A stretch of 64,000 nucleotides of DNA from an uncultured Verrucomicrobiae bacterium (GCA_963765205.1 CAVXVB010000005.1:32001-96000), one strand, 5' to 3'. Positions 17,665 through 49,512 are shown, counted from the first letter of the stretch. Program-made: numbers and translations. Notes: generated by a model not told the origin, from the letters alone.

Positions 17665-17670
17665 ATCCGC

Positions 17671-24308: not shown

Positions 24309-24322
24309 TAATCTAGCGGTTA

Positions 24323-31098: not shown

Positions 31099-31490
31099 CC
31101 ACTTTGAAGGAAGAACTTCAAAAGCGGCGATTGGCGGAACCGCAAGTCGTCCGTTCCTACGAGTTGGCGAAAGAGCCGGTTCGTTCGCTGCAAATCCATT
31201 CGTGGAACGGCGAAAAGCTGGTGCTGCCGTGGTCGCAGTTTCATTCTGCCGCCCACCGGGCCGCGAATGACGGTGAGCAGTTGGTGCTCGGATTCTCCAA
31301 GCATGAGGTTGTATTACAAGGCGGGCGTTTGGCGATCCTGTTGCCAAAGATTGCCAGTTTCCATCTTGCTTGCGTTTGGGGTGAGTCGGCGGAATTCCAA
31401 AATGAATCGGACCTAAAAGAAGCATTTATCAGCCGGGTCGCGGTGCGCTGTCTGACGAATTTGACCGGGCGAGGCCCGGAAACGTTCTGA
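31095..31490 (+). CDS. Hypothetical protein coupled to the relaxase
   Basis: ATGA overlap with the relaxase stop. Confidence 0.65.
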   Translation: MTTLKEELQKRRLAEPQVVRSYELAKEPVRSLQIHSWNGEKLVLPWSQFHSAAHRAANDGEQLVLGFSKHEVVLQGGRLAILLPKIASFHLACVWGESAEFQNESDLKEAFISRVAVRCLTNLTGRGPETF

Positions 31491-31513
31491 AAAATTCCGG
31501 GATTGTCCAAGTA
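31478..31513 (+). promoter_or_regulatory. Conserved box 2 (putative AraC site)
   Basis: GGAAACGTTCTGAAAAATTCCGGGATTGTCCAAGTA upstream of the coupling protein. Confidence 0.6.
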
Positions 31514-31584
31514 AATGCGGCTGGGGACGGGTAGATTGGGGATGGCTCCGTTACCCCGATGGTGACGGTTCGCCGTCCGTCGCC

Positions 31585-33060: not shown

Positions 33061-33065
33061 TCGCC

Positions 33066-34037
33066 ATGTCCCCTGAAACCGCCACCATTCCATTTTCCTC
33101 CGCGATTGTGCGAGCTGAGAAATTGCGCGGTCTGCGCCCGCATTTGGAAGCAAACATTCGGGGCCAGCCGCATGTCATGGAGCGCACTACTTCGGTTTTG
33201 ACGCGCGGGGAATTGGGCCTATCCCATCCCGGAAGGCCCAAAGGTTCGTTCCTCTTTGTTGGCCCTACCGGCGTGGGGAAAACTGAGCTTACCAACGTCT
33301 TTACGTCCTACCTTTTCGGCGAGCGGAAGCCGATTCGGTTTGATATGTCGGAATACCAGAATCAGTCTTCGGTGGAAAAGTTGATTGGACAGGCTGCCGA
33401 TCAAACAGGGCTGTTAGGCCGGGCGCTCGATGGCATCGCGGAAGGCACGTTGCTTTTCGACGAAATTGAAAAGGCGCATCCGCTCGTCCTGGATTTGTTC
33501 CTGCAAATGCTCGACGATGCGAGTATCACGTTCGCCACGGGTGAGCGGAAGAATCTATCTCGGTTCTATACGGTTTTTACGAGTAACATTGGCTCGTCCG
33601 AGGTTATGCGGATGACTTCCGCGCCGATGGCGACGGTGGAACGAACAGTGCTGTCGCGCGTCGGTCAGCAACTTCGCCCTGAATTGGTCGGGCGCATAAC
33701 CGAAAAGTTGGTGTTCGGTCGCTTGGGCTTCGACACGCAACGCGAGATTTGCGAGCTGATGATTGAGCGGGAACGCGCCCGGTTGCGCAACTTGGGCTTT
33801 GTCCTGGAAGCAAATGGCGAAGTCGTGGAATTCTTAATTCGGCGCGGTTTCCACAAAAATCTCGGTGCGCGGCCCATGCGTGCCGCAGTCGAACGTCATT
33901 TGCAGGATGCCATCGCGGAGGGGATGCTTTGCAATGGAGAAGGCTCTGGGCGCGTAGTTGTGGATGAGCGAAACGAACGTTTAGTGCTTCACCCCAATAG
34001 CCCTCCAATTTGCGACGATACCGTGACGACGCCGTGA
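33066..34037 (+). CDS. Stand-alone ClpB-D2-like AAA+ ATPase
   Basis: IRGQ, RPKGSFLFVGPTGVGKTE, DMSEYQ, FDEIEKAH, TSN, RPELVGR, GARP. Confidence 0.88.
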   Translation: MSPETATIPFSSAIVRAEKLRGLRPHLEANIRGQPHVMERTTSVLTRGELGLSHPGRPKGSFLFVGPTGVGKTELTNVFTSYLFGERKPIRFDMSEYQNQSSVEKLIGQAADQTGLLGRALDGIAEGTLLFDEIEKAHPLVLDLFLQMLDDASITFATGERKNLSRFYTVFTSNIGSSEVMRMTSAPMATVERTVLSRVGQQLRPELVGRITEKLVFGRLGFDTQREICELMIERERARLRNLGFVLEANGEVVEFLIRRGFHKNLGARPMRAAVERHLQDAIAEGMLCNGEGSGRVVVDERNERLVLHPNSPPICDDTVTTP

Positions 34038-34145
34038 AAACACGGTGAACCTCTCTCTACAAATTTGAAACCAAGCCTAATGCAAGGTAGGTTAGGCAAA
34101 GTCACTTTTCCCCTCAAAAGCTTTTGACTCAAATGACTCCGCACT

Positions 34146-35072
34146 ATGAATGCCGTTTGCATCGAACTCGTCCCAACGCGCTCGCGGGCGGGGAGTCGAA
34201 ATGTTCAACGGCCAAATTTGACCATGCAGCCCTTTGGCCCGTGGCTTTGCCATGGTGAAGAAGTCAGTGTCTATTATACGAGGTTGAAGCCGAATAGTTG
34301 GCCGAAGCACAATCATAGGCACGCTGAACTGCTGCTTACCTTTGATTCGGCTCAGGGTGAGATTGTCTGGGAGAAAGGCGCGGATTGCACGCGGCGGCAA
34401 CTGCTGGGGCCGCATCAATTCTGTTTGATTCCACCCAATGTGCCGCACGCTTGCGAATGGAAGCGTGCGGCTGATGTCGTGGTGGTGTTTTTTGGCGAAG
34501 GGCTGCTCAAATCGCAAGTGCGCCAGCCGCAAGGCAACGTGGTGGTGGGTGATTTTCGACCGCTTACCCGATTGGATGGATGCCTATGGTCGTTGGGGTG
34601 CATTTTTCACGATTTGTGCCACAAAAAGGAAAGACCGTCTGCCGACTTCATCGAAGGTGTCGGAACCGCCTTGGCCTCGCGCACGCTTGAATTGCATTTT
34701 AACGCTAATCAACGGGGTGTAAGGCCGCAACCCGGATTGCCGGACCATGTGCTGCATCGGGTGGTCACGTATATTGACGGGCATTTGAACGAATCCATCA
34801 CGGTAAGCGATATGGCCCGTCAAGCGGCATTGGGAGTTGATCGCTTCACCCAACTCCTGAAAATCACCACCGGCGCGTCGCCGCTGCAATTTCTTTTGAA
34901 ATGCCGGGTTGAAAAGGCGCTGGAACTTTTACGCACCGGAAAATTTCGCGTGGGGGAAGCGGCCTGCCAGGTGGGATTCTGCGACCAAAGCCATCTCGAC
35001 CGGCACTGCCGAAAAATTTTCGGATGTGCGCCTAAGACGGCGATTACAGCACATGAACGGGAATCGTTCTGA
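34146..35072 (+). CDS. AraC-family transcriptional regulator
   Basis: Cupin-like H.H...IPPNVPH N-terminus; C-terminal VGFCDQSHL.R. Confidence 0.9.
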   Translation: MNAVCIELVPTRSRAGSRNVQRPNLTMQPFGPWLCHGEEVSVYYTRLKPNSWPKHNHRHAELLLTFDSAQGEIVWEKGADCTRRQLLGPHQFCLIPPNVPHACEWKRAADVVVVFFGEGLLKSQVRQPQGNVVVGDFRPLTRLDGCLWSLGCIFHDLCHKKERPSADFIEGVGTALASRTLELHFNANQRGVRPQPGLPDHVLHRVVTYIDGHLNESITVSDMARQAALGVDRFTQLLKITTGASPLQFLLKCRVEKALELLRTGKFRVGEAACQVGFCDQSHLDRHCRKIFGCAPKTAITAHERESF

Positions 35073-35094
35073 AAAATCCCGGAATCATCCAAGA
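35060..35094 (+). promoter_or_regulatory. Conserved box 3 (putative AraC site)
   Basis: GGAATCGTTCTGAAAAATCCCGGAATCATCCAAGA upstream of the pilin operon. Confidence 0.6.
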
Positions 35095-35133
35095 CGGTTT
35101 AAGTGAAGTGAGGTAGGTTTGGGCACATTCGCC

Positions 35134-35460
35134 ATGAAAACTATCCTAAAACTTATTCCTGTTTTGATTTCGCTCCAGCCGCTGCAAAGCCGCGCCGGGG
35201 TGCTGCCAGCACCGATGCTGGCGCAAGTGTCGGGCACGCTCAAGCAATCCATGCAAGCCGGGTTGGGCGTGATGTTCCTCTTCGGCTTCCTCTGGGGTGT
35301 CGTCAAAATCTGGTCGGGTGCAGATCGAATGTCGAAAGGGGACGTGGATGGGAAAATGGGCATCGTTGCCGGTATTATCATCGCGGGCGCCGCCGCCATC
35401 ATGGGCGCTCTGTTCGCAATTTTCGGCATGGGTGACGGGGTGTTGACGCCACAATTCTAG
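35134..35460 (+). CDS. VirB2-like pilin
   Basis: Signal peptide plus two hydrophobic helices; first gene of the T4SS operon. Confidence 0.6.
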   Translation: MKTILKLIPVLISLQPLQSRAGVLPAPMLAQVSGTLKQSMQAGLGVMFLFGFLWGVVKIWSGADRMSKGDVDGKMGIVAGIIIAGAAAIMGALFAIFGMGDGVLTPQF

Positions 35461-35471
35461 CCTCACTCGCC

Positions 35472-35813
35472 ATGAGCGAATTGCGCATAACGGACACGAA
35501 TAGCGCAAACGACAGCAAAGGGCGCGCGTTCGGATTGGAGGGCAACGATTTTATCTACGTCCTCGTGGCTTTCGTCACTTCCCTCGGTCTCTACATCCTC
35601 CTCACCGCCTTATTTGGCATCGGTAAAATTGCCGCATTAGTCCTCGTCCTACCCTTCCTGCTTGGCCCGCTGGCCTGGGTGCTGCTTCTGCGGCACAACA
35701 AACCGGAAGGCTACGCGAGAGATTGGTTTGATCAAAAATTCAACGGAGAAGGCTGGTCGTTTGTTGTTCAAACGCAACCCGCCCCCCACCAACGCCGTGA
35801 ACGCCGCACCTAA
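35472..35813 (+). CDS. VirB3-like membrane protein
   Basis: Two TMs, KPEGY; directly before VirB4. Confidence 0.6.
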   Translation: MSELRITDTNSANDSKGRAFGLEGNDFIYVLVAFVTSLGLYILLTALFGIGKIAALVLVLPFLLGPLAWVLLLRHNKPEGYARDWFDQKFNGEGWSFVVQTQPAPHQRRERRT

Positions 35814-38415
35814 TGGATATTTTGCCGATGGGCTGATACTCTTCGGCTCGCTGGAGAAAGGCGGCTGCGCGGCCAAAGGCTACGTCCTCCAGCCGCCAGA
35901 CTTGCGGGGCGGCAGCGTGTCGAATCTGAATGCCTACCAGGACAAGATTCGTAGTTTGCTGGCGAACGTCTCGGTCGGAATGCGGGTGCAACTCCAATGG
36001 ACGTGCAATTGCGATTACAAGAAGGAGCTAACCCGGTATTTCCGGGAAACGGAAAAGGTAACTCATCCGCATATCAAGCGGGTGCGCACGGAACGGTTTC
36101 AACGGTTTTGGGACAGGATGCACCGCCGCGAGCTGCGACGGGAAAATTTGGTGCTTTTCGTAACGACGGCAATTACGAGTTATTCGGGAAATGTCAAAGG
36201 TCACGATGCGTTGTTGCGCTATTACGAAAAGCTCTTGGGACAACTGCGCGGCCAGTTTGACGAATTGACGGGCACGCTGCGAACGATTTTCGGCGGCGAT
36301 ACCCCGGTGACGCCGATGGGCGATATTGAGCATTACGTTTACTGCAAGAAATTCCTCAATCCGTCGCTGGCGGATCGTTTCGACGTGGATTTTGAGGCGC
36401 AATTCAACCCGGCTTTGTCGCTGCAAGAAAACTGCTGGAATTCGGACGGCGTAAGTCTGCCAAAAATCGGTTTTTATTTCGATGGCCTCTATCATACGAT
36501 TTACACGCTCAAGCGTTGGCCGAGTCGAACATACCCTGGCATTATTCACCGGCTAACCGGATTGTCGTTTCTCGACTATCAAATCACGGTCAACATAGAA
36601 CCGCTGCCCGCTAAGCGCGAAGTCGAGAAGGAGGAAAAGGCCATTGAACGGCTGCGCGGGGAATACGAAGATTCGGAGCGGCACTCGCTGTTGGTCGCCA
36701 TTGGGAAAAAGGAGAAGAAGATTGAATCGCTTTCGACCGGCTTCATCAATGCCTTCGCCGTTACTTACATTTTTCGCGTCTGGGATGAAAGCGAGTCGGC
36801 GTTAAGCGCGAAGTGTGCCGCGATCAAAAATGCAATCAATTCGATGGGTGGCGCACAGTATTACGAGTGCGCCCTTCCTTCGACGGCCAAAAAGCTGTTT
36901 TTCGCCTCCTGGCCGGGCTGGACTGGCTCCGATTACCGCTACCGCAACCTTTACGGGGAGGATGCCTACTTGGCGGACATGCTACCGTTTTCGGCCACGT
37001 TCACCGGGCATCTGGACGAGGCAGAAGCAATCTACGATGGCTCTCAAAACAATCTCGTCGGCTTGCGCACCTTCCTTGGCTCGCCGCCAACGCCGCAACA
37101 TACGGTTCTTATCGGCGCAACGGGCGCGGGCAAATCCGTGCATATGCGGGACTTTTTGGAGCAAACGGCCTGTTATTACGATTACACGGTCTTGATTGAA
37201 GAGGGTTTGTCCTACAAGGCGTTCACGCAAGCCCTGGGAGAGCGGCCAATCATCCTGCACCCGGATGGTGATTTGACCATTAACTATTTCGACACGGGCG
37301 GCTTGCCGCTCGGTCAATTGCAACTGGCGACTGCCGTGGCTCTGGTCGCCCGGATGATTGGCGAAGCGCCCGGTGTCGAGGCGCAGCAAATCCGTCAAGC
37401 GTTGCTGGCCCAATACATTACCCAGCTCTATGAGGATACTTTTGAGGAATGGGCGAAGCGGCATCGCGAGCTGGTGCCGGGCATCGAGCGGATGGCCTGT
37501 GCCACGCATCGTTGGAAGCTCGAAAAAATGGGATTGGGTGCAACGGAATTAGAAGCCTTCGCGGAACTGCGTGACCGTCAAAAGGCAAATGACGATGAGG
37601 CCCTACAATTCATCGCCGCGATTACTGAGGGGGAGATTACCAAGTTCCTCAAGCAACCTCAAACGGAACGTTCGGTGGTGGCAATGGCGCACGCGCATTA
37701 TCGCCGGGAAGATTTTCCGGTTCACGCGAGTCTCGTTGAATTGATGCAATTCTCCCGATTCCCCGAGCACAAGAAAGAGGAAATTGACCATTTGGCTACG
37801 TTGCTCTCCGCCTGGACGGCGCAAGGGCATTATGGCCGGCTGTTCGATGGCCCCACGAATGTTTCCCTTACGGGCAAGATTGCCCATTTTGAACTCGGTT
37901 ATATCCCGGAACAGGCCACGGAATTGAAAACCGCTGCGGGGCTGCTGGTCAGTGGCTTTGCTCGGCAGCATATCATCAGCCTGCCTCGGGCTCTCTGGAA
38001 ACGGGTGGTTTACGAGGAATTGGCGCGGTTTCTCGACGTGCCGGGCGGGGAGAAAATTGTCGCGGAGTCCTACGCGCAATTGCGCAAGTTCAACTGCTGG
38101 ACGGCCTCCATAGTCCAGCAATACAGCAAGTTCAAGGATACGCGGATTCGTCCGGTCGTCATTGGTAACAGCAAGCAATTCTTCTTGATGCGGCAGTTTG
38201 ACCGGGCCGATGTGGAAGACATTGCACTGGCGATCAATCTGCCGGAGTCGGTCTGCGCCTCCATCCAGAATTATCCCATGCCGGAGCAACAACCGACCGA
38301 CCGGAAATTCTCCAGCATCTGCTTTTTCAGCCCGGTCACAGATCCGCCGCTGTGCGGCACGGTGCGCAACGTTCAACCGCCCAAGGAGGTTTCCCATGAA
38401 AAAGTCGCGGTCTAA
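35797..38415 (+). CDS. virB4: VirB4-like conjugative ATPase
   Basis: HTVLIGATGAGKS, YEE Walker B, LRK.N...IVQQ, NS..FFL; GTG start inferred. Confidence 0.82.
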   Translation: MNAAPNGYFADGLILFGSLEKGGCAAKGYVLQPPDLRGGSVSNLNAYQDKIRSLLANVSVGMRVQLQWTCNCDYKKELTRYFRETEKVTHPHIKRVRTERFQRFWDRMHRRELRRENLVLFVTTAITSYSGNVKGHDALLRYYEKLLGQLRGQFDELTGTLRTIFGGDTPVTPMGDIEHYVYCKKFLNPSLADRFDVDFEAQFNPALSLQENCWNSDGVSLPKIGFYFDGLYHTIYTLKRWPSRTYPGIIHRLTGLSFLDYQITVNIEPLPAKREVEKEEKAIERLRGEYEDSERHSLLVAIGKKEKKIESLSTGFINAFAVTYIFRVWDESESALSAKCAAIKNAINSMGGAQYYECALPSTAKKLFFASWPGWTGSDYRYRNLYGEDAYLADMLPFSATFTGHLDEAEAIYDGSQNNLVGLRTFLGSPPTPQHTVLIGATGAGKSVHMRDFLEQTACYYDYTVLIEEGLSYKAFTQALGERPIILHPDGDLTINYFDTGGLPLGQLQLATAVALVARMIGEAPGVEAQQIRQALLAQYITQLYEDTFEEWAKRHRELVPGIERMACATHRWKLEKMGLGATELEAFAELRDRQKANDDEALQFIAAITEGEITKFLKQPQTERSVVAMAHAHYRREDFPVHASLVELMQFSRFPEHKKEEIDHLATLLSAWTAQGHYGRLFDGPTNVSLTGKIAHFELGYIPEQATELKTAAGLLVSGFARQHIISLPRALWKRVVYEELARFLDVPGGEKIVAESYAQLRKFNCWTASIVQQYSKFKDTRIRPVVIGNSKQFFLMRQFDRADVEDIALAINLPESVCASIQNYPMPEQQPTDRKFSSICFFSPVTDPPLCGTVRNVQPPKEVSHEKVAV

Positions 38416-38824
38416 ATTTCTCTGGCTACTCTTGCTGCCCCTGTTCGCTTTAGCGGGCTGCGCGTCCGGCATGGGCGGCGCGGCGTCGGACATTGGGCTA
38501 ACCGGGGCTGGTGGCGCGGTCGGCTATGAGGTGTCCGGTGGCAAAATCGGGGGCACTGCCATTGGCGCGGGTGCTGGCTACCTCGCGTCAAAAATCGCGC
38601 AGTCGCAATTTGCGAATGCTACCCAGGAAGCGGACAAGGCCGGATTCGACCGCGCCATGAATCAAGCGGTGAAGCAGCAATACTGGATTATCCAAAACCA
38701 GCAAAAATCCACGGTCGTGGCTGATGAGCGGAATCCGCGTCTCGTGCCGGTGGTCATTCCTGAATCCAACATCAACGGCGTCGTTCAAAATTCCCATGTT
38801 GAATATCTATCCATCGAACCATGA
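38396..38824 (+). CDS. T4SS-associated lipoprotein
   Basis: LAGC lipobox, glycine zipper. Confidence 0.7.
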   Translation: MKKSRSKFLWLLLLPLFALAGCASGMGGAASDIGLTGAGGAVGYEVSGGKIGGTAIGAGAGYLASKIAQSQFANATQEADKAGFDRAMNQAVKQQYWIIQNQQKSTVVADERNPRLVPVVIPESNINGVVQNSHVEYLSIEP

Positions 38825-39603
38825 AAACTTACCTCTTACTTCTTTTTCTCGTGCCGGTAACGGCTTTCGGTCAATACCCGGTTTTCGACGGTGCCAATCT
38901 GGCTAACAATCAGTCGGCGCACGCCGAGGATATTGCCAAGTGGGTGCAAAGCATCGCGCAGTTGAAAACGCAAATAGACCAGTTGAACCAGCAAATCAGC
39001 ATCCAAAGCGATATTCGCCAGTGGCAGGGCGATCCGGTGGAAGCGGGCGCAAAGGTGGTGCTGGTGGGCCTCGGGCAGCAGGATTTGGCCCAGCAATACG
39101 GCCAGATAAAGACGGTTCTACTTAGTCTCGTAAACAGCGTGGCGTCGTTGACGAACACCGGCCAGGGCACTTACCGGCCAATCAACGATGTCGATTTAAG
39201 CGGCAACGCGTTCCAGCCGGACCCGTTGACGCATCGCCGCTATTCGGTATTGGACGCCGCGCAAGCGAACTCTGACCAAGTTACGGATGAAACGAAGGCT
39301 CGGGAAGATATTTTACAGGCCGATATTGCCGCCACACTCGCCCAATTGGCGACGGCCTCGACGGATGCCGAGGCGCAAAAACTGACCGCAAAGCTGATTG
39401 TGTTGAATGGGCAGCTTGCCCAGGTGGAGGCAACGCAAAAGCGGGAAGCGGATGCCGTCACATTGCAAAAGGTCGCGAACGATTCGCGCAAGGATGAGGA
39501 AATTCAGGCGGCGGCAGAACTTGAGATGCAGGACGATTATTTAGCGAACCAACGGGTCACGGCCTACATGCACACTATCAAACTGAGGACAACCACGCCA
39601 TGA
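38821..39603 (+). CDS. VirB5/TrbJ-like exported protein
   Basis: Signal peptide, YPVFDGAN, Gln-rich coiled coil. Confidence 0.65.
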   Translation: MKTYLLLLFLVPVTAFGQYPVFDGANLANNQSAHAEDIAKWVQSIAQLKTQIDQLNQQISIQSDIRQWQGDPVEAGAKVVLVGLGQQDLAQQYGQIKTVLLSLVNSVASLTNTGQGTYRPINDVDLSGNAFQPDPLTHRRYSVLDAAQANSDQVTDETKAREDILQADIAATLAQLATASTDAEAQKLTAKLIVLNGQLAQVEATQKREADAVTLQKVANDSRKDEEIQAAAELEMQDDYLANQRVTAYMHTIKLRTTTP

Positions 39604-39860
39604 ACATAAAACGTCATATCACCGTTGTACTGCTGCTCGCCTTTGTGCTCGGCGGTGCCGCCTGCTCGAAAAAAGACGATACGAACGAGAAGCAGCGCCT
39701 TGCACAGGAACAGCAAGATGAGCGGGACGCTGCGATAGCGAACAAGGCGATTTCGGACAACAATAGGAACGCCCTTGGGCGCAAGCCGCCAAATTTTGAT
39801 TTGGGCTTACCGCCCGTGATGGACAACGGGACGGCGCAAACTCAAACGCAACAACCTTAA
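39600..39860 (+). CDS. Small lipoprotein (possible entry exclusion)
   Basis: GAAC lipobox; lies between virB5-like and virB6-like genes. Confidence 0.55.
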   Translation: MNIKRHITVVLLLAFVLGGAACSKKDDTNEKQRLAQEQQDERDAAIANKAISDNNRNALGRKPPNFDLGLPPVMDNGTAQTQTQQP

Positions 39861-39866
39861 ATTATC

Positions 39867-40817
39867 ATGGAAATCTTTCTTCCAACGCTGGAAAGCAAAA
39901 TGACGGCCATCGTGGTCGCCTTTCGTTTTGTCGTTTTTGCGATAATGGTGGCGGGATTGATTGGGTATGCCTCCACTGGTCGTGCGCAAGGGGCCGGACT
40001 ATTCGGGCCATTGTTCCGCGCCCTCATAATCGTTACGGCCATCGCATTTCAGGATACATGGTTTCCGCAAGTGGAAAATACCTTCCTCTCGGTCTCCGAG
40101 TATATTGACCCCGGCTATAACGCCAATCCAACTTCCTCGGCGGATGCCATACGCGAATCCACCACGACGAATCCGCAAGGCCAGTCGTGGTCATGGCGGC
40201 GGCTCAACCAATCCATCTACCAGGCGGTCACAAACGCGCTCGCGAATGTTTTCATTTACATCGGCACGCTGATTACGGTCCCGATGCTGATTCTCCAATA
40301 CGTCCTGCGTTGGCTGCTGTATATGCTGACGCCGTTTGCGTTGGCTATGTTTATGGTGCCGGGGTTTAGCGGGATAGCCATACGGTTCTTTCAACAATTA
40401 TTGGCGATTTTAGCGTGGCCGGTCGGATTCGCCATAACGAACCTCGTTGCTCTGGCCGTTTGGCAAGATTTTCGCAACGCGGTGGGAGCCAATCCACAAA
40501 CCGTCAGTGATGCCCTCTATTCGCCTCTTTTGACCTTCATGGGGGGAATCCTGGCTACGATTATGATTATCGTGGGGATGGTCTCGACGCCCATTGTCAT
40601 GCAGATGCTCTTTGCGCAAGGCCATGCCTTTACCGGGTCGTCGGGCAATCCCATTTCCATTATCCGCGGCAGTGCCAGTGTCCTTTACGGCGTCGGCGAC
40701 CGCCTGGTAGGTCGTCGCGGTCGTGGCGCCCTCCTCGCGCCGCAGCAGGGGGCTGCGCAACCGTCAACCCCGCCTAACCCGCCGCCGATGGGGGCTGATC
40801 CCCGGCCCGGAATATGA
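39867..40817 (+). CDS. VirB6/TrbL-like membrane protein
   Basis: Polytopic hydrophobic protein, ILAWPVG; position in operon. Confidence 0.7.
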   Translation: MEIFLPTLESKMTAIVVAFRFVVFAIMVAGLIGYASTGRAQGAGLFGPLFRALIIVTAIAFQDTWFPQVENTFLSVSEYIDPGYNANPTSSADAIRESTTTNPQGQSWSWRRLNQSIYQAVTNALANVFIYIGTLITVPMLILQYVLRWLLYMLTPFALAMFMVPGFSGIAIRFFQQLLAILAWPVGFAITNLVALAVWQDFRNAVGANPQTVSDALYSPLLTFMGGILATIMIIVGMVSTPIVMQMLFAQGHAFTGSSGNPISIIRGSASVLYGVGDRLVGRRGRGALLAPQQGAAQPSTPPNPPPMGADPRPGI

Positions 40818-40830
40818 AGAAAGCTTTGCC

Positions 40831-41505
40831 ATGGATGCTGAAACCACCGCAACCGGCCTGCACGAAAGCCCCGTGGATCAAACCCGCCAGCTTCCGGCGG
40901 CCAAGCGTGCGCGTTTTTCGCCAGTGCGTCTCTTTGCGGACAATGCGTTTGCGGCACGCCTGTGGTTTCTTGTGGCCTGCGGCGCATTGGCGTTCTGTGT
41001 AATCCAACCCTACCTTATTATCTCGGCCTATCGGACAAGGGAGCGGGTCGTCGTGTTGGACGGCGCGGGAACCTTTTCAGTTTCGCCGTTGCTGGGCTTT
41101 GAGGAGGCCAAGGATTTGCATGAGGCCATCGCCCTGTGGGCCACGCTGGCGCTTTTTGAGCGCAATCCCAAAGACTTTGATTACCCGGAAATGCTGCAAC
41201 GCCTGTATCTCGCGGATGCCTTTCAAAAGGCGGAGGCTGACCGTGACAAGTCGCGGGACGAATTTGCCGTAAAGTCCATTCACCAAAAGCCGGAAGTCTT
41301 CAAGATAGACATTCTGCAAACCCGCGACAACCAGGTGCTCGTCAAGGTGGAAGGCCAATTGATTCGCACAGGCATTTTTGAAGGCCAGTCATTCGCGGAA
41401 TCTCCAAAATTTACGCTCACCCTTACTCTGGTGCGAAACCCGGACATGTTCGCCAATAAACGCTATCCCCTCGGTGTATGGAAATTCGACTACACTTTAA
41501 ATTAG
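40831..41505 (+). CDS. VirB8-like protein
   Basis: Single TM, periplasmic domain ending RNP...YPLGV. Confidence 0.6.
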   Translation: MDAETTATGLHESPVDQTRQLPAAKRARFSPVRLFADNAFAARLWFLVACGALAFCVIQPYLIISAYRTRERVVVLDGAGTFSVSPLLGFEEAKDLHEAIALWATLALFERNPKDFDYPEMLQRLYLADAFQKAEADRDKSRDEFAVKSIHQKPEVFKIDILQTRDNQVLVKVEGQLIRTGIFEGQSFAESPKFTLTLTLVRNPDMFANKRYPLGVWKFDYTLN

Positions 41506-42353
41506 CGGCGCTGCTAATCCCGCTGCTTGCAACCGTTGCGCTGGCCGATCCGCCCGCGCCGCATCCAAGCGTCGTCAAGCAGTTCCCCTTGGATGAGCGC
41601 ACGGTTTACGAAATTCCCATCGGGCGTGACGTGCCTACCACGCTCATGTTCCCTTCGGCGATTTCCGCCATTGATAGCGCAAACGTGTCGGGCAATCCTG
41701 ATACCCCTGCGCCTGTGATGCTGGCCTATACGCCGGGACAGTATTTTTTCAGCGTGCGGGCAATGACGCCGGGGGCCAAGGGCGCGGTGAACGTGGTGTG
41801 GCACAATCGCACGTTTGTCATTCGGTTCGCGGAAGGCGCGGAGCCGTATGGCTCGGTGACGTTCTACGACGATGATTTCGCGGGCCGTGACCATGCGGTG
41901 CAAAAACGGGTCACGCCGGAAACCCTGTTGGGCCTGCTCGACCGCGCCAAGAGTTACCAATTGATCGAAATGCAATATCCCGAGGCTGTGCAGCAAATTG
42001 AGCACGCGGAGCCGGGCAGCATCAGTTATTACAAGGATTTTCAAGTGACGGTGGAAGAGGTCTTTCGCTTCGACCCCGAGGATACGCTGGTTTTCAAACT
42101 GAAATTGGAAAACATGGGCGATGTGGAAATCCATTACCAGCCGCAACGGCTGGCCGTCCGGGTTGGGCAAAACGTCTATTATGCCTCCATCGTGGATGCC
42201 TCCGGCATCATTCCGCCCAAAGCAGTAACGACAGCCTACTTTGCGGTTACCGGCAGCCCCACCGGGGGGCGAGCCAACCTGAGCATTAAGAATACTTTCA
42301 ACATCATCGTCACGCGCATTGAGCGTGACGTGAAACTTATCGTTCCCCAATAG
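41478..42353 (+). CDS. VirB9/TraK-like exported protein
   Basis: Signal peptide, PTTLMFPSAI; precedes VirB10. Confidence 0.55.
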   Translation: MEIRLHFKLAALLIPLLATVALADPPAPHPSVVKQFPLDERTVYEIPIGRDVPTTLMFPSAISAIDSANVSGNPDTPAPVMLAYTPGQYFFSVRAMTPGAKGAVNVVWHNRTFVIRFAEGAEPYGSVTFYDDDFAGRDHAVQKRVTPETLLGLLDRAKSYQLIEMQYPEAVQQIEHAEPGSISYYKDFQVTVEEVFRFDPEDTLVFKLKLENMGDVEIHYQPQRLAVRVGQNVYYASIVDASGIIPPKAVTTAYFAVTGSPTGGRANLSIKNTFNIIVTRIERDVKLIVPQ

Positions 42354-42355
42354 CC

Positions 42356-43369
42356 ATGCGCGTCATCGCTTTTTTGAAGTCTCCAATGGGCAACCTGGCC
42401 CTCTTCTTCGGTTTCATCGCCGCGGGTGGTTTGTTGCTTTATCAAAGCAACGCGCGGGCGCGGGCACAATCGGCTCAAATGACGAAAATCGAGGGGGCTG
42501 GCCCTGCGATGTCGGCGGCGTCAATTTTCCGCACTTCAGTGCCGTTCAAGCCACCCGCAGCGGCGGCTGATGGCGACGCGGAGCCAGCCTCGGCAGCGGT
42601 GAAAGCAAAGGCCCCAAGTGGGCCAAAGCCGCTGCCCATTTCCCTTTTCATCGCGGGCAAAACGGCGCAAGACGCCCAGGAATTGTCGAAAAACTACGCG
42701 CCTTTTGGTCGCCTGATTCCCTGTGAGACAGTTATCACTTTGGAGTCTTCTAAACTTGATACGCCGGTTATCGGCCTCGTTACTGAAGATGTCTGGAACA
42801 ATGGACGGCTTATCATCCCGGCGGGTGCCGAGGTGCATGGTCGTGCGTCGCTAGACCACTCGCGCGATAGGATAGCGGCTTCCGGGAAGTGGGTCATTGT
42901 CTGGCGGGACGCCAGCAATTTGAACGGCACGGAATTGGTAGTCTCTGGCATCGCGCTCGACCGCGAAAAAGATGACACCACCGGCCAATTCGGCTTGCTG
43001 GATGGTTCGGCGGGCCTCACCGGGGCCATTATCAAGACCGACGATATGGAGGAAATAAAACTTTTCGCCGCGACATTTTTAGCCGGAATGGCGAGCGGGT
43101 TTCAACAACTGCAAACGCAAGTCACGCCGCTGGGCATCGCGCAGATTTCCACCGGCTCGGCCCGTAACGCGGCCCTGCAAGGAACTGCCAGCGTGCTTAA
43201 CCTGTATGCGCAACAAATCCAGGCGGCGATTGAGCAAGACGGGGTCTATGTGCGGGTGCCGACTGGCAAACAGTTTTATCTCTACGTCACCCAAACCGTA
43301 GATCAGGCGCAAGGGACGCGAGACAATCTGAGCAACCAAGAACTCTGGAGGAAAGACAATGCAAAATAG
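42356..43369 (+). CDS. virB10: VirB10/TrbI-like protein
   Basis: G.LIPC, PVIGLVTEDV, IPAGAEVHG, DGSAGL.G, VPTG..F. Confidence 0.8.
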   Translation: MRVIAFLKSPMGNLALFFGFIAAGGLLLYQSNARARAQSAQMTKIEGAGPAMSAASIFRTSVPFKPPAAAADGDAEPASAAVKAKAPSGPKPLPISLFIAGKTAQDAQELSKNYAPFGRLIPCETVITLESSKLDTPVIGLVTEDVWNNGRLIIPAGAEVHGRASLDHSRDRIAASGKWVIVWRDASNLNGTELVVSGIALDREKDDTTGQFGLLDGSAGLTGAIIKTDDMEEIKLFAATFLAGMASGFQQLQTQVTPLGIAQISTGSARNAALQGTASVLNLYAQQIQAAIEQDGVYVRVPTGKQFYLYVTQTVDQAQGTRDNLSNQELWRKDNAK

Positions 43370-43859
43370 AATCATCATCTTGCTTTCGATTTTCATTTTG
43401 GCGGGTTGCCAGACAGTGAAAAAGGCTCCCGCGCCGCCTCCGCTGGAGGTGCCACCGCCTGTTGCGGGCACGGAATTAGACCAAAACAACATGGAAAATG
43501 TACGGGTCAGTGAATCACTCAAAGCCTACCCGGTGGGGCGCTTTGTTGACCCCAATAATCCGAATGTCATGGACGAGGCGCATACGGTTTATCGCCGCGA
43601 AGCCGGGGCGGAGTGGAATTTGAATCCCAATGCTCCTACGGTGGTGCCGCTTGGCCCGGTGCTTGCGGTAGCGGACCCGGCCAAGGTGCCTAACCCGCTG
43701 CCGGCGGAATTGGAGCAGAAAATTGCGGAGCAGAATCAACTCATGGCTTCGCTGATTGAGCAAAATGAGGCTCTGGCAGCTCAACTGGCAAAACTAAACA
43801 AAGACATCGCAGACATGCGCGCGAGGCAATCCGTGCCGGGCGGGGAAGGCGGCAAATGA
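43359..43859 (+). CDS. Lipoprotein with C-terminal coiled coil
   Basis: LAGC lipobox, YPVGRFVDP. Confidence 0.7.
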   Translation: MQNRIIILLSIFILAGCQTVKKAPAPPPLEVPPPVAGTELDQNNMENVRVSESLKAYPVGRFVDPNNPNVMDEAHTVYRREAGAEWNLNPNAPTVVPLGPVLAVADPAKVPNPLPAELEQKIAEQNQLMASLIEQNEALAAQLAKLNKDIADMRARQSVPGGEGGK

Positions 43860-44122
43860 ATCTGGAACTAAAATCACCCCCTGAAGTGGAGGGTTTGACC
43901 GTGATCTTGCCTCCGCATTTGGCGGAAAAATTTGAACGGGCAGACCGCGAGTTGCGTGAGATATACGGCCAGAGTCCGGGTGCTGCGGTTTTGTTGCGGA
44001 TGTGGCTCGGGTATAGTTCAACCACACGTATTCGCCGTGAATTCGAGCACGCCGTTTTGGAAATAGAAAGTCGCAATCCCACCCCTAACGAGGAAGGGGA
44101 TTACGATGAAGACTGCCTATAA
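43856..44122 (+). CDS. Hypothetical protein
   Basis: ATGA-coupled ORF at the end of the operon. Confidence 0.5.
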   Translation: MNLELKSPPEVEGLTVILPPHLAEKFERADRELREIYGQSPGAAVLLRMWLGYSSTTRIRREFEHAVLEIESRNPTPNEEGDYDEDCL

Positions 44123-44212
44123 CTTTGGGCGATATTCGCCCAAACAAGGTCAAGTGCCAATGGCGACCAGCCGCCTTGGTTAAATAATGGCTGGGGAAAA
44201 ACAGGAGGCATT

Positions 44213-44587
44213 ATGCCAACACTAAAACAGTCAATCGCCGAGAAAAAGGCGCAGGAACCGGGGCTTCGCAGGAATCCTGAAATTGATGCCAAGCTGGATC
44301 AATTCATTCAGGAAAACTCGAAACTCCGCGAGTTCTACCAGGGCCTGAGCAAGGAGGATCTGATCCGCAAGCTCATGCTCGCGAAAATGCAACGCAGCGA
44401 ATACACCAACGGCCGCAATCAGGAGATTCGGGCGTGGGTGGAAGAGCACCCCGAGATCAAGGCAAAGATCGAGGAGCGCATCCGCAACGTCCCGGAGGCG
44501 AAACGTGAACGCGCGTTCTTGAACGCCGCGAAAACGGAAGCCATGAACCAGACGGTGCGCGCCAACGGCAACGGCGTCCGCCCGTAG
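44213..44587 (+). CDS. Hypothetical charged helical protein
   Basis: AGGAGG RBS, followed by a terminator. Confidence 0.75.
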   Translation: MPTLKQSIAEKKAQEPGLRRNPEIDAKLDQFIQENSKLREFYQGLSKEDLIRKLMLAKMQRSEYTNGRNQEIRAWVEEHPEIKAKIEERIRNVPEAKRERAFLNAAKTEAMNQTVRANGNGVRP

Positions 44588-44604
44588 CTGCGGCGGTTCC
44601 GGAG

Positions 44605-44638
44605 GGCGGTGGGCGCTTTTGCGCCCGCCGCCTTTTTT
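44605..44638 (+). terminator. Rho-independent terminator
   Basis: GGCGGTGGGCGC-TTTT-GCGCCCGCCGCC followed by T6. Confidence 0.8.
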
Positions 44639-44832
44639 GATAACGCAATGGAGGATTAACCAATTACACAAGTACGGAAGAGCTTGATGTTCAAGGGGAA
44701 ACTTTCAATATACCCACGGATAGATTTCAATAAGGGTGAAAAGAACATTTTTATGCTTGCAGATGCTTACAACAGAGTTCATCGTGAATTTCCAAATTAG
44801 GGCAACAACACTTAACTTAATTTCATCCTCCC

Positions 44833-45264
44833 ATGAGCTTTCCTTCAATCAAAGAAAAGTTAACCACCTTCGCGGCTGGGCTCGGTACCGACCAGCAGAA
44901 CCAGCTTCAACGTATTTTAGAAGCCGCTGAGGCAAGTATAAAAAATCCGGCGTTAAAATCCGGGATGGCTCCAAAGAATCCCAAAATTCGCGAAGAAAAG
45001 TCGAATTCGGATCCTTACGCAGAAGCTGGCTTATATGTAAAGCCCATGTCGGCACACGAAGTTGTCGGTCGCGAGCACAAGCCAAATCCAGACCCCTATG
45101 AGCAAGGTGGTCTTTATACGAAGCCGATGTCAGCTCACGAACTTGTAGGCCACGAAAGCAAAACGAATGCTGACCCTTATGAGCAAGGTGGCCTTTATGT
45201 AAAGCCGATGTCGGCTCATGAACTCGTTGGACGCGATGACAAAACGGGTTCGGCTCAAGAATAA
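44833..45264 (+). CDS. Candidate multicore RiPP precursor peptide
   Basis: Helical N-terminal leader then three 27-aa repeats containing DPYxxxGLYxKPMSAHExVG; upstream of tailoring enzymes. Confidence 0.7.
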   Translation: MSFPSIKEKLTTFAAGLGTDQQNQLQRILEAAEASIKNPALKSGMAPKNPKIREEKSNSDPYAEAGLYVKPMSAHEVVGREHKPNPDPYEQGGLYTKPMSAHELVGHESKTNADPYEQGGLYVKPMSAHELVGRDDKTGSAQE

Positions 45265-45463
45265 ACATTTAACAATCTGAGAACGACATGGTTAGTTGAA
45301 GCGCAGTTAATTACTCGCTGACCAGAAACAGGCCATCAAAACTAGAGATTATATGTGCTTTGCAGCACAAAATCGACCGTGCTGCAATACATTGAAGTAG
45401 TATTCTATTGGCTCGACCTAACCACTGGTCCAACGGGTAGACCAGATTGTTTGGATACCATCT

Positions 45464-46207
45464 ATGACTACGCCGATGTCAACAGATTTGAGCCGAGAAT
45501 TGAGTTTCTTCGCTAACACCTCACTCGAACCGGAGGAAAGAGAAACGGTTCGCTTGTGTCTTGGAACTGCTGTTGGTGAGTTTATCGACAAGAAAACATT
45601 AGAGCCGTTGCCCGACCGGCAAAATGCTGTGCGCGATATAAGCGGAACTCTTAATTTAATGAACCCGCTCGGGAATGTTATCCCACAGAGTGGCATATTA
45701 TTCACTGGTCGCCCAACTTTCATAACTGACGAACTTCTGCATTCACTAAAGGAAGAAGCCCGATTACAATATCGTAAGGCAATATTCAATTATTAACAGT
45801 ATTTGGGCGATGGCGGCCCAATAGCGATTAGCTTAAGTCGGTCCGCACGATTGCTCGGAATAATCTCAACGATTTCGCACTGCTCATTTATGCCAAATTC
45901 GGCGAGTTTTCTTTACTACAATTATCCTGGCTCTCGTGTTTTGCCCCATGTAGACAATAGGAGATTTTTTATCAATGTTCTTCTGATGATAGAGCATAAT
46001 GGGGTGCATGAATTAAGGCCTTCTTGCACGGTCGTTTACCCGCCGAACGGACCGCCACAATATTTCGACCTACAACCTGGAGAAATGTTAATATTTTGTG
46101 CCGCATACGTGCCCCATGCACGTAGTCCAGTAGCGGGCGACGAAACTGTCACGGTTTTGTCTCTCGGATATGAGTTGCAAACCGTTAACTTACAACCCGC
46201 AATTTAA
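45464..46207 (+). pseudogene. 2OG-Fe(II) oxygenase interrupted by an in-frame TAA (45794-45796)
   Basis: Both ORF halves are in one frame; PHVD and HAR motifs; colinear with 48769-49512. Confidence 0.75.
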
Positions 46208-46209
46208 CT

Positions 46210-48219
46210 GTGGTGTCGCGATCAGGTAACTATGTTCTTGGAATTCATTTAGGCCACGATGCGTCATGCGCAGTGGTGCGCGACGGTGTATTACTAGCCG
46301 CGGTTCAAGCAGAACGAATTACAAGAAAAAAGCATCAAATTCAGCACACCCTTTCGGACGCTCTTCCAATTAAAGCGGTCTTACGAGCTGCGGCTATTGA
46401 GTTGGCCGATGTTCGACTAATAGTTTCAAGTTTCCAAGGAATGGCTCCTGGCGGGTTTGGGTTACACACACCTCTTATAGACCCAGGTTTCAATTCTTTC
46501 GACCCTTTTGATGAAAGACATTTCTGTATTTCACATCATTTAGCTCATGCGTATTACGGGTTTGGAAGTTCGGGATTCTCAGATGCTGCGGTCCTTGTAT
46601 GTGACATGGCAGGGTCGTCGACGCACGATGGGAACGACTATTGCTTGCCTTTCCGACGCTGGCACGATGGGCTTACAAGCTTTGAAAAGGTGCCTGCCAC
46701 AAAAACAGAAACTCTCTCAATATACCATGCGACAATGAGCGGGATTGAGTTAAAGGAGCGACAGTTTTGGATAAGCCATGTTCAACCTCATTCTTATATC
46801 CAGAGCGCTACAACGTTATACGAGAATGTTTCATTTGCGGTGTTTCGTAGGCACAATTGCCATGGGCAGCTAATGGCGTTAGCCGCCTTTTCGGATGAGA
46901 AAAACGGTCTCGTCACTTGGGAATCAATTATAGACACGGATAGTGCTTGCGCCATACAATTCAAAAACAATTGGCAACATCGAATTCCGACTGAAATGAC
47001 CTTTAGCGCCTCCGCATCTTTAGCACATGCTTGCCAAATAGCATTTGAATATTGCATTTTAGCTCACGTTAGGAACGCTAAACGGTTGGTGTTGTCTGAT
47101 AATCTAGTAGGATCAGGAGGTGCGTTTTTAAATATTCCTGCGAACACAAAAGTTTACGACAGTCATGTTTTCAATCGTTACTTTGTTCCCAGCGCGCCTC
47201 ATGACGCTGGAATATCTGCGGGTTGCGCGTTCTGGGGAGACCGTTTTCTTCGACGTGAGCAATACTTTTTTGCAAATACGCCAGCGCCATGCAGAGCGAA
47301 TGATCGGCTTGGTGTTCAATATTCAAGAGTGGAGATATTAGATGCTTTACGGCGATTTGATTACTTTGTTGAATTTGAAGCCGCGTCCCCGACGGTAGTA
47401 GCTGAAAAACTCTTTGCTGGGCGTATTCTAGCCCGTTATTCAGGAAGAGCCGAATTTGGCCCAAGGGCACTTGGCGGTCGAAGTTTATTAGCATCGCCCT
47501 TGTTGGAAGCAACAAAAGTGCGAATGAATCACATAAAGGGGCGCCAACCTTGGAGGCCAGTGGCACCGGTAATACTGGAAAACCATGTCCACGAGTTCTT
47601 TGTTGGTCCAGCAAGTAGTCCCTACATGTTATTTTCATATCGGGTTAGACCCGAGGTTGTCGATCAATTACCCGCGCTGCATCACCCTGACAATTCAACG
47701 CGCCCGCAGACATTACAACGAGCAGATGATGAGGATTTGTACGACCTGATCTCTGCATTTTCCAAGCTAAGCGGCGTTCCCATTCTTGTAAATACCTCGC
47801 TCAATGGCGCTGGTGAAGCAATGATAGAAACGCCAAATGAAGCTGTGCAGTTCTTTCTCGACCATGAGGACGTAGATGATTTACTCATCGACGGCTGGAT
47901 GGTTTCGCGGCGGGGAACTTGGGACGATGAGCGCCTGAAGAATCTACGCTTGAGACTACCTAGCCATACGCGAATAGAGTTAGTTCTTGATGAAGCTGAG
48001 TGGACTGCATTCGTACATAACGGGCGTGTTTCCCAAAAGATGAGTTTGAAGCTTGCGGGTGTACTTGTGACATGCACTGGTAACGAAACAGCGGGAAGAA
48101 TTTTGCAGAAACTTGACGATGAAGCGACCCGGAATTTCTTATACAAGCTTCTCGCAATTGGTCTTGTCGAGGTGGATGGCGACCCGATGCCTATCGAAGA
48201 TAACGGAGGGACATTCTAA
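46210..48219 (+). CDS. NodU/CmcH-family carbamoyltransferase
   Basis: GHDAS, ERITR.K, HHLAHA, LMALA, GG.FLN..AN, P.DAG.S.G, EFGPRALG.RS, KGRQ.WRP.AP, NTSLN. Confidence 0.92.
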   Translation: MVSRSGNYVLGIHLGHDASCAVVRDGVLLAAVQAERITRKKHQIQHTLSDALPIKAVLRAAAIELADVRLIVSSFQGMAPGGFGLHTPLIDPGFNSFDPFDERHFCISHHLAHAYYGFGSSGFSDAAVLVCDMAGSSTHDGNDYCLPFRRWHDGLTSFEKVPATKTETLSIYHATMSGIELKERQFWISHVQPHSYIQSATTLYENVSFAVFRRHNCHGQLMALAAFSDEKNGLVTWESIIDTDSACAIQFKNNWQHRIPTEMTFSASASLAHACQIAFEYCILAHVRNAKRLVLSDNLVGSGGAFLNIPANTKVYDSHVFNRYFVPSAPHDAGISAGCAFWGDRFLRREQYFFANTPAPCRANDRLGVQYSRVEILDALRRFDYFVEFEAASPTVVAEKLFAGRILARYSGRAEFGPRALGGRSLLASPLLEATKVRMNHIKGRQPWRPVAPVILENHVHEFFVGPASSPYMLFSYRVRPEVVDQLPALHHPDNSTRPQTLQRADDEDLYDLISAFSKLSGVPILVNTSLNGAGEAMIETPNEAVQFFLDHEDVDDLLIDGWMVSRRGTWDDERLKNLRLRLPSHTRIELVLDEAEWTAFVHNGRVSQKMSLKLAGVLVTCTGNETAGRILQKLDDEATRNFLYKLLAIGLVEVDGDPMPIEDNGGTF

Positions 48220-48767
48220 TGATACACCGTACCCCAATTACTTCAGAAACTCTAGTTACGCGCCGGTTACACCTGGAGTTTTTTAAGAAAGATCATGCCA
48301 TGTGTTTATTCAAGGGGTTACAGGACCCTCGAATTTATCTATTTATTCCTGATGATCCTCCGGCTGATTTAAGCGTGCTTCAAAAGAGGTATGAAATATT
48401 AGAAAAGGGGGTATCGCCTAACGGAGAGGAATTATGGCTTAATTGGGCAATCCAGTTGCAAAATGGAACTTATATCGGTTACGTTCAAGCGACTGTGTTT
48501 CAAGACGACACCGCATCGTTAGCCTATGTAGTCTTTCCTCAATTTTGGCGTAAAGGTTATGCGAAAGAAGCATGTCAACGAGTAGTAAACTTTCTATTCG
48601 AAGGCAAGCATGCCGCATTGATTACTGCGAACACGAATACGAAAAACGAAGCATCTATAGCGCTTCTGCATTCGCTTGGCTTTTATCATGTGCGGTCAAT
48701 ATCCAATGCTGAAACAATAAGGGGGGTTCCAAGCGATGAACATGTATTCCATCTCTCGAAAAGCTGA
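48219..48767 (+). CDS. GNAT (RimJ/RimL-like) N-acetyltransferase
   Basis: T.RL.L, FWRKGYAKEA, N.ASI.LL..LGF. Confidence 0.88.
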   Translation: MIHRTPITSETLVTRRLHLEFFKKDHAMCLFKGLQDPRIYLFIPDDPPADLSVLQKRYEILEKGVSPNGEELWLNWAIQLQNGTYIGYVQATVFQDDTASLAYVVFPQFWRKGYAKEACQRVVNFLFEGKHAALITANTNTKNEASIALLHSLGFYHVRSISNAETIRGVPSDEHVFHLSKS

Positions 48768-48768
48768 T

Positions 48769-49512
48769 ATGCAAGGCAAAGATGCCATGGAAGAGAAACA
48801 AGCCGGATCGACAACGCTTGCCGAGTCGCTATCGTCATTCGGCAATACACTAAACCCGGAAGAACAAAGCGCACTGCGGAAAGTTTTGGCGGTTGCTATT
48901 CCAGAGCTTATTCCAAACAATGGTTCACTTCCGTCTGAGCTAGATGCTGCTGTTAAATTTGCAACTGTTTGTGAATGTCTGAGGTCTCTTCAGCCATTCT
49001 CTCGTCGGATTCCTGAAAATGGAATTGTCTTTCACGGTCGCCCGTCATGGCTTACTGATACATTGCTGAGTAAATTACAGATTGAAGCTGAGGAAACTCG
49101 GCCTTCCGCTATTGTACAACACGGCCATTTTCTAGGAAAAGGTGGTTTGCTAGCAGACCAACTTGCTTTTGATGAAGGGGTGCTCCAATGGGTAATCAGG
49201 TATGCCGGAACCTCAAAACCGACTGGCATTGCCAGCTACATTCATTATGAGCAGGAAGGAGATGGGCTATATCCCCATGTTGATACAGATATTTTCGCCA
49301 TTAACGTATTAGTGATGTTGAAACACGTATACCCATCTCATGGTCCAGTGTCTGAAACGTGCGTTTATCCAAATGGGAATCGGGTTGAGAAATACGATCT
49401 AAAACCAGGTGAGACGATCATGATGTTTGGCGGCAGCGTCGTCCATGCGCGCCTTCCGCTTCAAAAGGGCGAAATGGTTCGTATCGTAACATTTGGCTTT
49501 CAGCCGATGTGA
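48769..49512 (+). CDS. 2OG-Fe(II) oxygenase
   Basis: YPHVDT (HxD), LKPGE...F.G..VHAR.P. Confidence 0.78.
   Translation: MQGKDAMEEKQAGSTTLAESLSSFGNTLNPEEQSALRKVLAVAIPELIPNNGSLPSELDAAVKFATVCECLRSLQPFSRRIPENGIVFHGRPSWLTDTLLSKLQIEAEETRPSAIVQHGHFLGKGGLLADQLAFDEGVLQWVIRYAGTSKPTGIASYIHYEQEGDGLYPHVDTDIFAINVLVMLKHVYPSHGPVSETCVYPNGNRVEKYDLKPGETIMMFGGSVVHARLPLQKGEMVRIVTFGFQPM

Follow-up and report, generated by a model that had tools for sequence, protein, structure and literature searches.

We describe a five-gene cassette at positions 44833-49512 of a 64,000-nt stretch of DNA from an uncultured Verrucomicrobiae bacterium (GCA_963765205.1 CAVXVB010000005.1:32001-96000; hereafter the window, with positions counted from its first letter). 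The cassette encodes a small precursor peptide, two oxygenases, a carbamoyltransferase and an acetyltransferase of the GCN5-related N-acetyltransferase (GNAT) type. It very probably represents a real, widespread and apparently undescribed system for making a peptide that is synthesized on the ribosome and modified after translation (RiPP). With somewhat less assurance, we consider it likely that these genes form a RiPP cluster whose class has apparently not been described before, that an integrative conjugative element carries them as cargo, and that a serine of the peptide core is carbamoylated. The features on which the argument rests are as follows.

44833..45264 (+), precursor peptide, 143 aa, with a helical leader and three cores (profile of 29 relatives, E 3.8e-7)
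44833..44958 (+), leader, residues about 1-42, homologous to the N-terminal helices of the oxygenases (hhalign probability 82%, E 1e-5; modelled complex)
45031..45069 (+), core 1, after Ala-Gly, with invariant Lys70 and Ser73 (alignment of relatives, selection test)
45112..45150 (+), core 2, after Gly-Gly, with Lys97 and Ser100
45193..45231 (+), core 3, after Gly-Gly, with Lys124 and Ser127
45464..46207 (+), oxygenase 1, Fe/2-oxoglutarate (2OG) fold, HxD...H triad kept, start codon uncertain (34% to oxygenase 2, E 3e-39)
46210..48219 (+), NodU/CmcH-type carbamoyltransferase with a C-terminal winged-helix domain, proposed Ser O-carbamoyltransferase (Pfam, fold, covariation)
48219..48767 (+), RimJ/RimL-type GNAT acetyltransferase, putatively for tailoring or self-protection (PF13302, E 4.7e-20)
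48736..49512 (+), oxygenase 2, with an N-terminal leader-like helical domain and a double-stranded beta-helix (DSBH) Fe/2OG domain; H181, D183, H237, R239

A precursor with a conserved core adjoins the enzymes

The loci compared, 38 from genomes and 48 from metagenomes, were drawn with motifs from 19 closer oxygenases. Among the genome loci, 36 have a precursor upstream, 34 a carbamoyltransferase, 36 a GNAT and 35 at least two oxygenase open reading frames (ORFs); the two that lack a precursor are a decayed copy (L024) and a locus at a contig edge (L038). Precursors are present in 38 of the 48 metagenome loci, and the remaining 10 end within 90 nt of the first oxygenase. A related peptide thus almost always adjoins the enzymes, where the sequence-only reading had named a general lack of a repeat peptide beside enzyme homologues as the finding that would speak against it. 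The family spans at least six phyla in named genomes, together with a Bacillota plasmid, and includes culturable Streptomyces, Roseateles, Kosakonia and Paraherbaspirillum. In the literature searched, mostly the main texts of open-access papers, we found this cluster described nowhere. A 2025 paper by Xia et al. in JACS, which we know as a title in a reference list, is said to concern alpha-ketoglutarate-dependent macrocyclisation in RiPPs and could overlap.

Individual relatives vary in their state and content. The Acinetobacter pittii copy, L024, is apparently decayed, with no precursor seen and the first oxygenase broken; a near-identical metagenome locus, L068, retains the precursor and a C39 transporter. 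On a Metabacillus plasmid (NZ_CP088246.1; L087/L095), a precursor, one oxygenase, a carbamoyltransferase, a major facilitator superfamily (MFS) gene and a GNAT lie beside a Tn3 transposase.

The window precursor contains three 81-bp units, at 45010, 45091 and 45172, that encode DPY(A/E)(E/Q)(A/G)GLY(V/T)KPMSAHE(V/L)VG, just as had been read from the sequence alone. Within the 20 conserved codons of each unit, the proportion of synonymous differences (pS) is 0.57-0.86 and that of nonsynonymous differences (pN) is 0.05-0.16 (binomial p 2-4e-4 per pair), and this constraint is absent from the 7-codon spacers between the cores. Judging from these proportions, we take the window cores to be under purifying selection, which bears out the selection claimed earlier for the repeat peptide.

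Across relatives the conserved core, [YF]-x-K-P-x-[S/Q], is shorter than the whole 20-residue unit that the sequence-only reading had singled out; the leader forms a helical hairpin. The Lys is present in all 75 loci whose core could be read, the Pro in 74 and an aromatic residue at -2 in 72, and position +3 from the Lys is Ser in 62 or Gln in 13; the core-reading pattern required K and S/Q, and all precursors found independently by profile at E < 1e-3 fitted it. A typical relative has a single core followed by a conserved amphipathic stretch, within a precursor of 70-190 aa. Tandem multiplication, of the core alone, occurs in 11 of the 75 loci, with variable spacers and a copy number that reaches at least 10. 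The description of the precursor as multicore is therefore true of the window copy and names a minority form.

As a lone query, the window precursor matched itself only, and its relatives surfaced through enzyme neighbourhoods. An Atlas look-up of a precursor gave unnamed clusters only (top score 0.88). One relative, L037, has the sole core with K-S in place of K-P; a radical S-adenosylmethionine gene lies there between two oxygenases (L037:6181-7986), with a RiPP C-methyltransferase model as its best match, below cut-off. This locus is possibly a further variant of the cluster.

The residue at Lys+3 tracks the carbamoyltransferase

Among the 75 loci with a readable core, Ser at Lys+3 occurs with a carbamoyltransferase in 58, Gln occurs without the enzyme in 8, no locus is discordant and 9 are cut too short; L062 is one further Ser locus with the enzyme, beyond the 58. 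After de-replication the two concordant classes number 44 and 8 at 90% identity and 16 and 6 at 60%; Fisher p-values for these tables take no account of kinship and carry no weight in the argument. In a tree built from the oxygenases of 65 loci, each trait switches three times, and the independent pairs are concordant in 3/3. The Gln loci were designated before the tree was built, and their grouping as a single clade is rejected (approximately unbiased test, p-AU 0.002). The clearest case of a switch is L039, sister of L002, in which the gene order is identical and the carbamoyltransferase is missing. Two other Gln-type loci, L006 (Paraherbaspirillum) and L011 (Niabella), consist of a precursor, two oxygenases and a GNAT and have no carbamoyltransferase match anywhere in their genomes, which are of unstated completeness.

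O-carbamoylserine differs from Gln in having an O in place of a CH2. It serves as a Gln mimic in medicinal chemistry, according to a reference title in PMC3670284. Because the Ser/Gln residue tracks the enzyme and O-carbamoylserine mimics Gln, the carbamoyltransferase probably acts on the Ser at Lys+3, and we hold with good confidence that this covariation reflects O-carbamoylation of a ribosomally encoded Ser. The carbamoyl group had earlier been placed on a hydroxyl made by an oxygenase; the covariation favours the ribosomal Ser instead and so predicts an exact modification site ahead of experiment. On the simplest reading, the enzyme turns the Ser into a Gln-like amide, and the product needs this amide to bind its target or the oxygenase reaction needs it as a nucleophile.

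The carbamoyltransferase itself scores above cut-off for PF02543 (43 vs 24 bits) and PF16861 (178 vs 27 bits) and has active-site-type motifs; it missed the cut-off of the NCBIfam NodU equivalog (148 of 1000 bits). Its tail has a fold like that of a RiPP recognition element (RRE), with the same three-strand, three-helix order (PqqD Z 7.6), and is matched best by NovN (Z 10.9, root-mean-square deviation (rmsd) 3.5, 93 aligned). We rejected this tail as proof of a peptide substrate because its best matches are NovN and GdmN, which carry the same domain; the C-terminal domain is thus no evidence on that point. The GNAT is retained in 8/8 Gln loci, so its place is with the Lys and the oxygenases and not with carbamoylation.

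Two observations on relatives belong here. L023 has, 5 kb upstream of its cluster, another carbamoyltransferase (L023:24-2276) that is more distant in sequence and ends in a similar C-terminal tail, and in the Gln-type cluster of L039 a TylF-type O-methyltransferase follows the MFS gene (L039:7169-7906).

Oxygenases and proposed leader recognition

The oxygenases belong to an unnamed family of 327 clusters at 50% identity (profile search). Neither Pfam nor NCBIfam has a model that covers the precursor or gives the window oxygenases a name, so standard mining may miss the family. For oxygenase 2, the PDB yielded no sequence match and, by profile, weak matches only; phages and viral contigs yielded no match. 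Among 62 family members, none matched the HalD Pfam model at E 0.01. The model of oxygenase 2 (predicted local distance difference test (pLDDT) 92.7) has an N-terminal helical domain and then a DSBH domain. The folds nearest to this model are HalB/HalD/BesD (Z 17.7; for HalB, 7u6i, rmsd 2.5 over 163 aligned), then a 2OG oxygenase as yet unstudied (16.8), then prolyl hydroxylases (15.8).

In 141 oxygenases from the loci, the metal-binding residues H181 and D183 are kept in 141/141 and H237 in 138/141. An Arg at His+2 (R239) is likewise found in 138/141, and His+10 varies. The Arg that binds the C5 carboxylate of 2OG usually sits at about His+10 of Fe/2OG oxygenases. The Arg at His+2 may stand in for it; with His+10 variable, use of 2OG is likely and not certain. 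The label 2OG given earlier to these enzymes therefore has no support from Pfam or NCBIfam and is backed by the fold and the metal triad.

In the window assembly a TAA at 45794-45796 interrupts the reading frame of oxygenase 1, a point that the sequence-only reading overlooked. Contigs of two soil samples from one study, one contig each at depths of 3.4 and 2.8, have a G at 45794, giving GAA (Glu); one of these samples may be the source of the window assembly. Because the contigs of both samples read GAA, oxygenase 1 is probably intact and the TAA an assembly error or strain variant, and its interpretation as a pseudogene is disfavoured. The true start of oxygenase 2 is possibly up to 17 codons downstream of 48736. 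Some distant members of the family (P0025, P0154, P0119, P0033, P0043 and L088) are fused to methyltransferase-like or adenylation-like domains, have a doubled leader-like domain or are annotated as tetratricopeptide repeat proteins (labels by eye). Such members may point to precursors of other kinds.

The leader profile matches the oxygenase N-terminus as listed above and gives weak matches to most oxygenases. We modelled a complex of oxygenase 2 residues 22-258 with precursor residues 1-85. The complex scored 0.86, against 0.00 for the best control; that mark is attained by 116 of 157 solved pairs and 2 of 215 mismatched pairs, and the model lies outside the tool's calibration, having used our own alignments and included iron. 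Model runs shared at least 47% of contacts, with a partner pLDDT of at least 56, and the contacts placed with confidence run between residues 3-42 of the leader and 27-78 of the enzyme. No Nif11 or NHLP leader model matched (21 precursors in Pfam; 8 in NCBIfam). The model thus supports binding of the leader to the homologous helical domain at the oxygenase N-terminus; if true, this would be a new alternative to recognition by an RRE.

Possible release and export

In the precursors of L007, L009 and L068, a double-Gly-like site, read by eye against the double-glycine leader motif (hydrophobic, ending GG/AG), is followed by a short core that forms the C-terminus. In these three and in all three window cores, the Lys is the fourth residue after GG/AG. 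Against NF038167, the L009 precursor scored 16 of 32 bits, below cut-off, and those of L007 and L068 had no match. A C39 peptidase ATP-binding cassette (ABC) transporter lies beside L007 and L068, an S9 peptidase beside L009, and an MFS gene is present in 34 loci. An MFS-GNAT fusion in Actinophytocola was rejected as a reading-frame artefact. The window has no protease or exporter gene near the cassette, as the sequence-only reading stated; the absence is local, because many relatives carry MFS or C39 transporters.

Proposed mechanism and alternatives

In the scheme that we propose, the helical leader would pack on the homologous helical domain at the oxygenase N-terminus, as in the modelled complex, and the carbamoyltransferase would O-carbamoylate each core, [YF]-x-K-P-x-S, at its Ser (+43 Da), creating a Gln isostere. 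One or two of the Fe/2OG-fold oxygenases would then oxidize the core, likeliest at the invariant Lys and otherwise at the Pro or the aromatic residue; our preference for the Lys as target is a slight one. The outcome could be hydroxylation, each adding 16, or closure of a four-residue ring (-2) through a C-N bond with the Lys+3 amide nitrogen, and of these we lean away from ring closure and towards plain hydroxylation. The GNAT would acetylate the Lys side chain or the released N-terminus, with about even chances that this serves self-protection or tailoring. Cores would be freed after GG/AG; relatives would use a C39 transporter, an S9 peptidase or an MFS exporter, and the window copy would have to depend on host enzymes or act intracellularly. 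The likeliest product, at about even odds, is an antagonistic, antibacterial molecule.

A more specific version of the scheme would have the defining oxygenase subfamily, itself new, grip the leader through its built-in leader copy and form an oxidative C-N ring from the invariant Lys (or the Pro) to the Lys+3 amide, supplied by Gln or by carbamoylated Ser. We offer it tentatively, as a rather unlikely conjunction; if it were true, an enzyme and a codon change would be interchangeable routes to the same amide group.

Several observations weigh against the scheme. The loci were drawn from one oxygenase subfamily, and the distant L088 showed no precursor. Three independent pairs are unable to reach significance (sign test, two-sided p 0.25). 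Of the eight Gln loci, L081 (181/1947 nt) and L056 (1439/1417 nt) have little flanking sequence, L081 is the only decidable member of the third switch branch, and the genome of the Gln-type L008 has another carbamoyltransferase elsewhere (35%). The complex model, besides its distance from calibrated use, places the leader only, the core having no confident placement. The oxygenases have their conserved Arg at His+2 instead of His+10, and the fold scores for amino-acid halogenases and prolyl hydroxylases are too close (Z 17.7, 16.8, 15.8) to tell which residue is the target. NovN and GdmN, which are small-molecule enzymes, share the RRE-like carbamoyltransferase tail. A PF03412 search found no C39 peptidase in the source genome, which is 92% complete. 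Finally, StdF of the std cluster sets a precedent for such enzymes to carbamoylate Lys instead (PMC13174530).

That last precedent leads to a RiPP with chemistry like that of crocagin or the std cluster (both described below), in which the carbamoyl group would sit on an oxygenase-made hydroxyl or on the Lys amine, as homocitrulline, and the link between Ser/Gln and the enzyme would be a by-product of lineage. We consider this improbable, even though both published RiPP carbamoyltransferases work in this way, the Lys is invariant and the independent Ser/Gln switches number only three. Enzyme loss and the change from Ser to Gln coincide on 3/3 branches and never occur apart, Gln is exactly what O-carbamoylserine mimics, and the Lys and the oxygenases are retained where the carbamoyltransferase is lost. 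It is less probable still that the small protein remains uncut, either as a modified mini-protein or as a scaffold for a single modified amino acid that is then released. The nearest oxygenase folds do act on free amino acids, most relatives have the conserved amphipathic follower after the core, and the window copy is without a nearby protease or exporter; yet the tandem cores, at least 10 with variable spacers, fit release of short peptides, as do the short C-terminal cores after double-Gly-like sites beside C39 transporters.

Core multiplication, the invariant Lys and the tracking of residue and enzyme would all be left unexplained if the substrate of the enzymes were a free metabolite or a protein of the host and the small ORF served the oxygenases only as a structural partner or regulator, possibly with an anti-phage role. 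The homology of the leader to the enzyme N-terminus could indeed mean a partner subunit, the distance to a QatABCD system is 6 kb, and among 22 loci sampled, 4 have defence genes nearby (of 137 neighbour ORFs listed, 125 were scanned; no baseline). Bar a weak generic 2OG match, PADLOC defence models match none of the cassette proteins, and we regard this last explanation as very improbable.

The carrier element and its surroundings

The cassette had been read from the sequence as an AT-richer, co-oriented five-gene insert directly after the terminator of a type IV secretion system (T4SS), and this is what we find. Its five ORFs (44833-45264, 45464-46207, 46210-48219, 48219-48767 and 48736-49512) share one orientation. 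Their GC content is 0.42-0.49, and 0.38-0.45 at third codon positions (GC3), compared with 0.55-0.57 and a GC3 of 0.67-0.75 in two upstream genes and 0.60 for the contig. Two features define the setting.

44601..44642 (+), terminator-like hairpin with a T-run, end of the upstream conjugation operon and insert boundary (-33.2 kcal/mol, z -6.7)
12200..44587 (no strand assigned), carrier element with a tyrosine integrase, a TrwC relaxase, a coupling protein and VirB4-like and TrbI-like T4SS genes (context)

The hairpin is a strong, GC one and is absent from the list of the consensus scan, whose promoter and terminator matches were at chance level only. The carrier is an integrative conjugative element, with the RiPP cassette as its cargo. 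The oxygenase family was found in 0 of 60 relatives of the source genome and in 0 of 400 genomes from each of two other families (those of G003 and G001). The cassette is sporadic mobile cargo.

Contig C5 (12472-107280) has a tRNA-Val with a 16-bp repeat at C5 106939, and direct repeats of 26 bp and 85 bp pair window positions 12195 and 13652 with C5 106881 and 107195. These are probably the marks of nested or tandem integrated elements. A perfect tandem duplication of 53 bp is present at 16313-16418. Directly downstream of the cluster is an imuA/imuB/dnaE2-type (imuABC-type) mutagenesis cassette on the minus strand (49872-55122), and a small ribbon-helix-helix gene, with three paralogues elsewhere in the genome, has its end at 49850. 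The QatABCD anti-phage system, downstream of the cassette at 55369-60090, is complete (PADLOC E 1e-152 to 1e-45).

Comparison with known systems

A published pairing of enzymes close to this one is that of crocagin from Chondromyces crocatus (CgnA-E, CgnI, CgnL). This RiPP is made with an alpha-ketoglutarate dioxygenase and a carbamoyltransferase from a 21-aa precursor with a three-residue C-terminal core; the peptide-binding proteins CgnB and CgnE and the protease CgnD are required, and the enzymes carry out Tyr/Trp beta-hydroxylation and ring closure (PMC10070186). The likeness lies in this pairing and in oxidation combined with carbamoylation. The earlier proposal of a new RiPP-type cluster with a multicore precursor is supported, with the correction that the combination of a 2OG dioxygenase with a carbamoyltransferase already exists in crocagin. 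Compared by the features described there, the present family differs in its 70-190 aa precursor with a helical leader, its internal KPx[S/Q] core, its GNAT and its proposed Ser target, and no CgnB/D/E-like genes are among the five.

In the std cluster of Streptomyces thermodiastaticus (StdF, StdDE, StdGH), the NodU-like StdF is fused to an S8 protease and carbamoylates Lys, alongside a multinuclear non-heme iron-dependent oxidative enzyme (MNIO), YcaO-TfuA and an SNKEWQE core; the paper names crocagin as the sole prior RiPP carbamoyltransferase (PMC13174530). Shared with the cassette family, on that description, are a NodU-like enzyme acting on a RiPP precursor, a conserved Lys, two oxidations and an MFS permease. 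By Pfam and NCBIfam, the cassette proteins include no MNIO, YcaO-TfuA or S8-fused carbamoyltransferase of the kind described there.

With BesD/HalB/HalD and the prolyl hydroxylase domain (PHD) type, the oxygenases share the DSBH fold (Z 17.7 to 7u6i; 15.8 to 6f0w) and the His/Asp/His triad; they differ in sequence (about 12-17% identity), in the extra N-terminal leader-like helical domain and in the invariant Arg at His+2. In Nif11 and NHLP folded-leader systems such as MppE/MppG, a helical leader likewise guides an Fe/alpha-ketoglutarate enzyme, MppG using an RRE (bioRxiv 10.64898/2026.10.04.756588); here, according to the model, the leader apparently binds a homologous copy of itself in the enzyme. 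TobZ, NovN, GdmN and NodU have both Pfam domains, the active-site-type motifs and the C-terminal domain in common with the carbamoyltransferase and act on small molecules, whereas the proposed target here is a peptide Ser. Fusions of an RRE with a carbamoyltransferase have been noted, with this family undescribed in the parts covered (PMC12710340; its RRE-Finder data set may include these carbamoyltransferases), and O-carbamoyl-homoserine is reported in a non-ribosomal peptide (PMC8471579).

The Gln-type versions offer minimal three- or four-gene systems for isolating the oxygenase chemistry. If the proposed Ser carbamoylation is true, the enzyme would be the third RiPP carbamoyltransferase, after those of crocagin and std, and in the literature searched the first to act on Ser.

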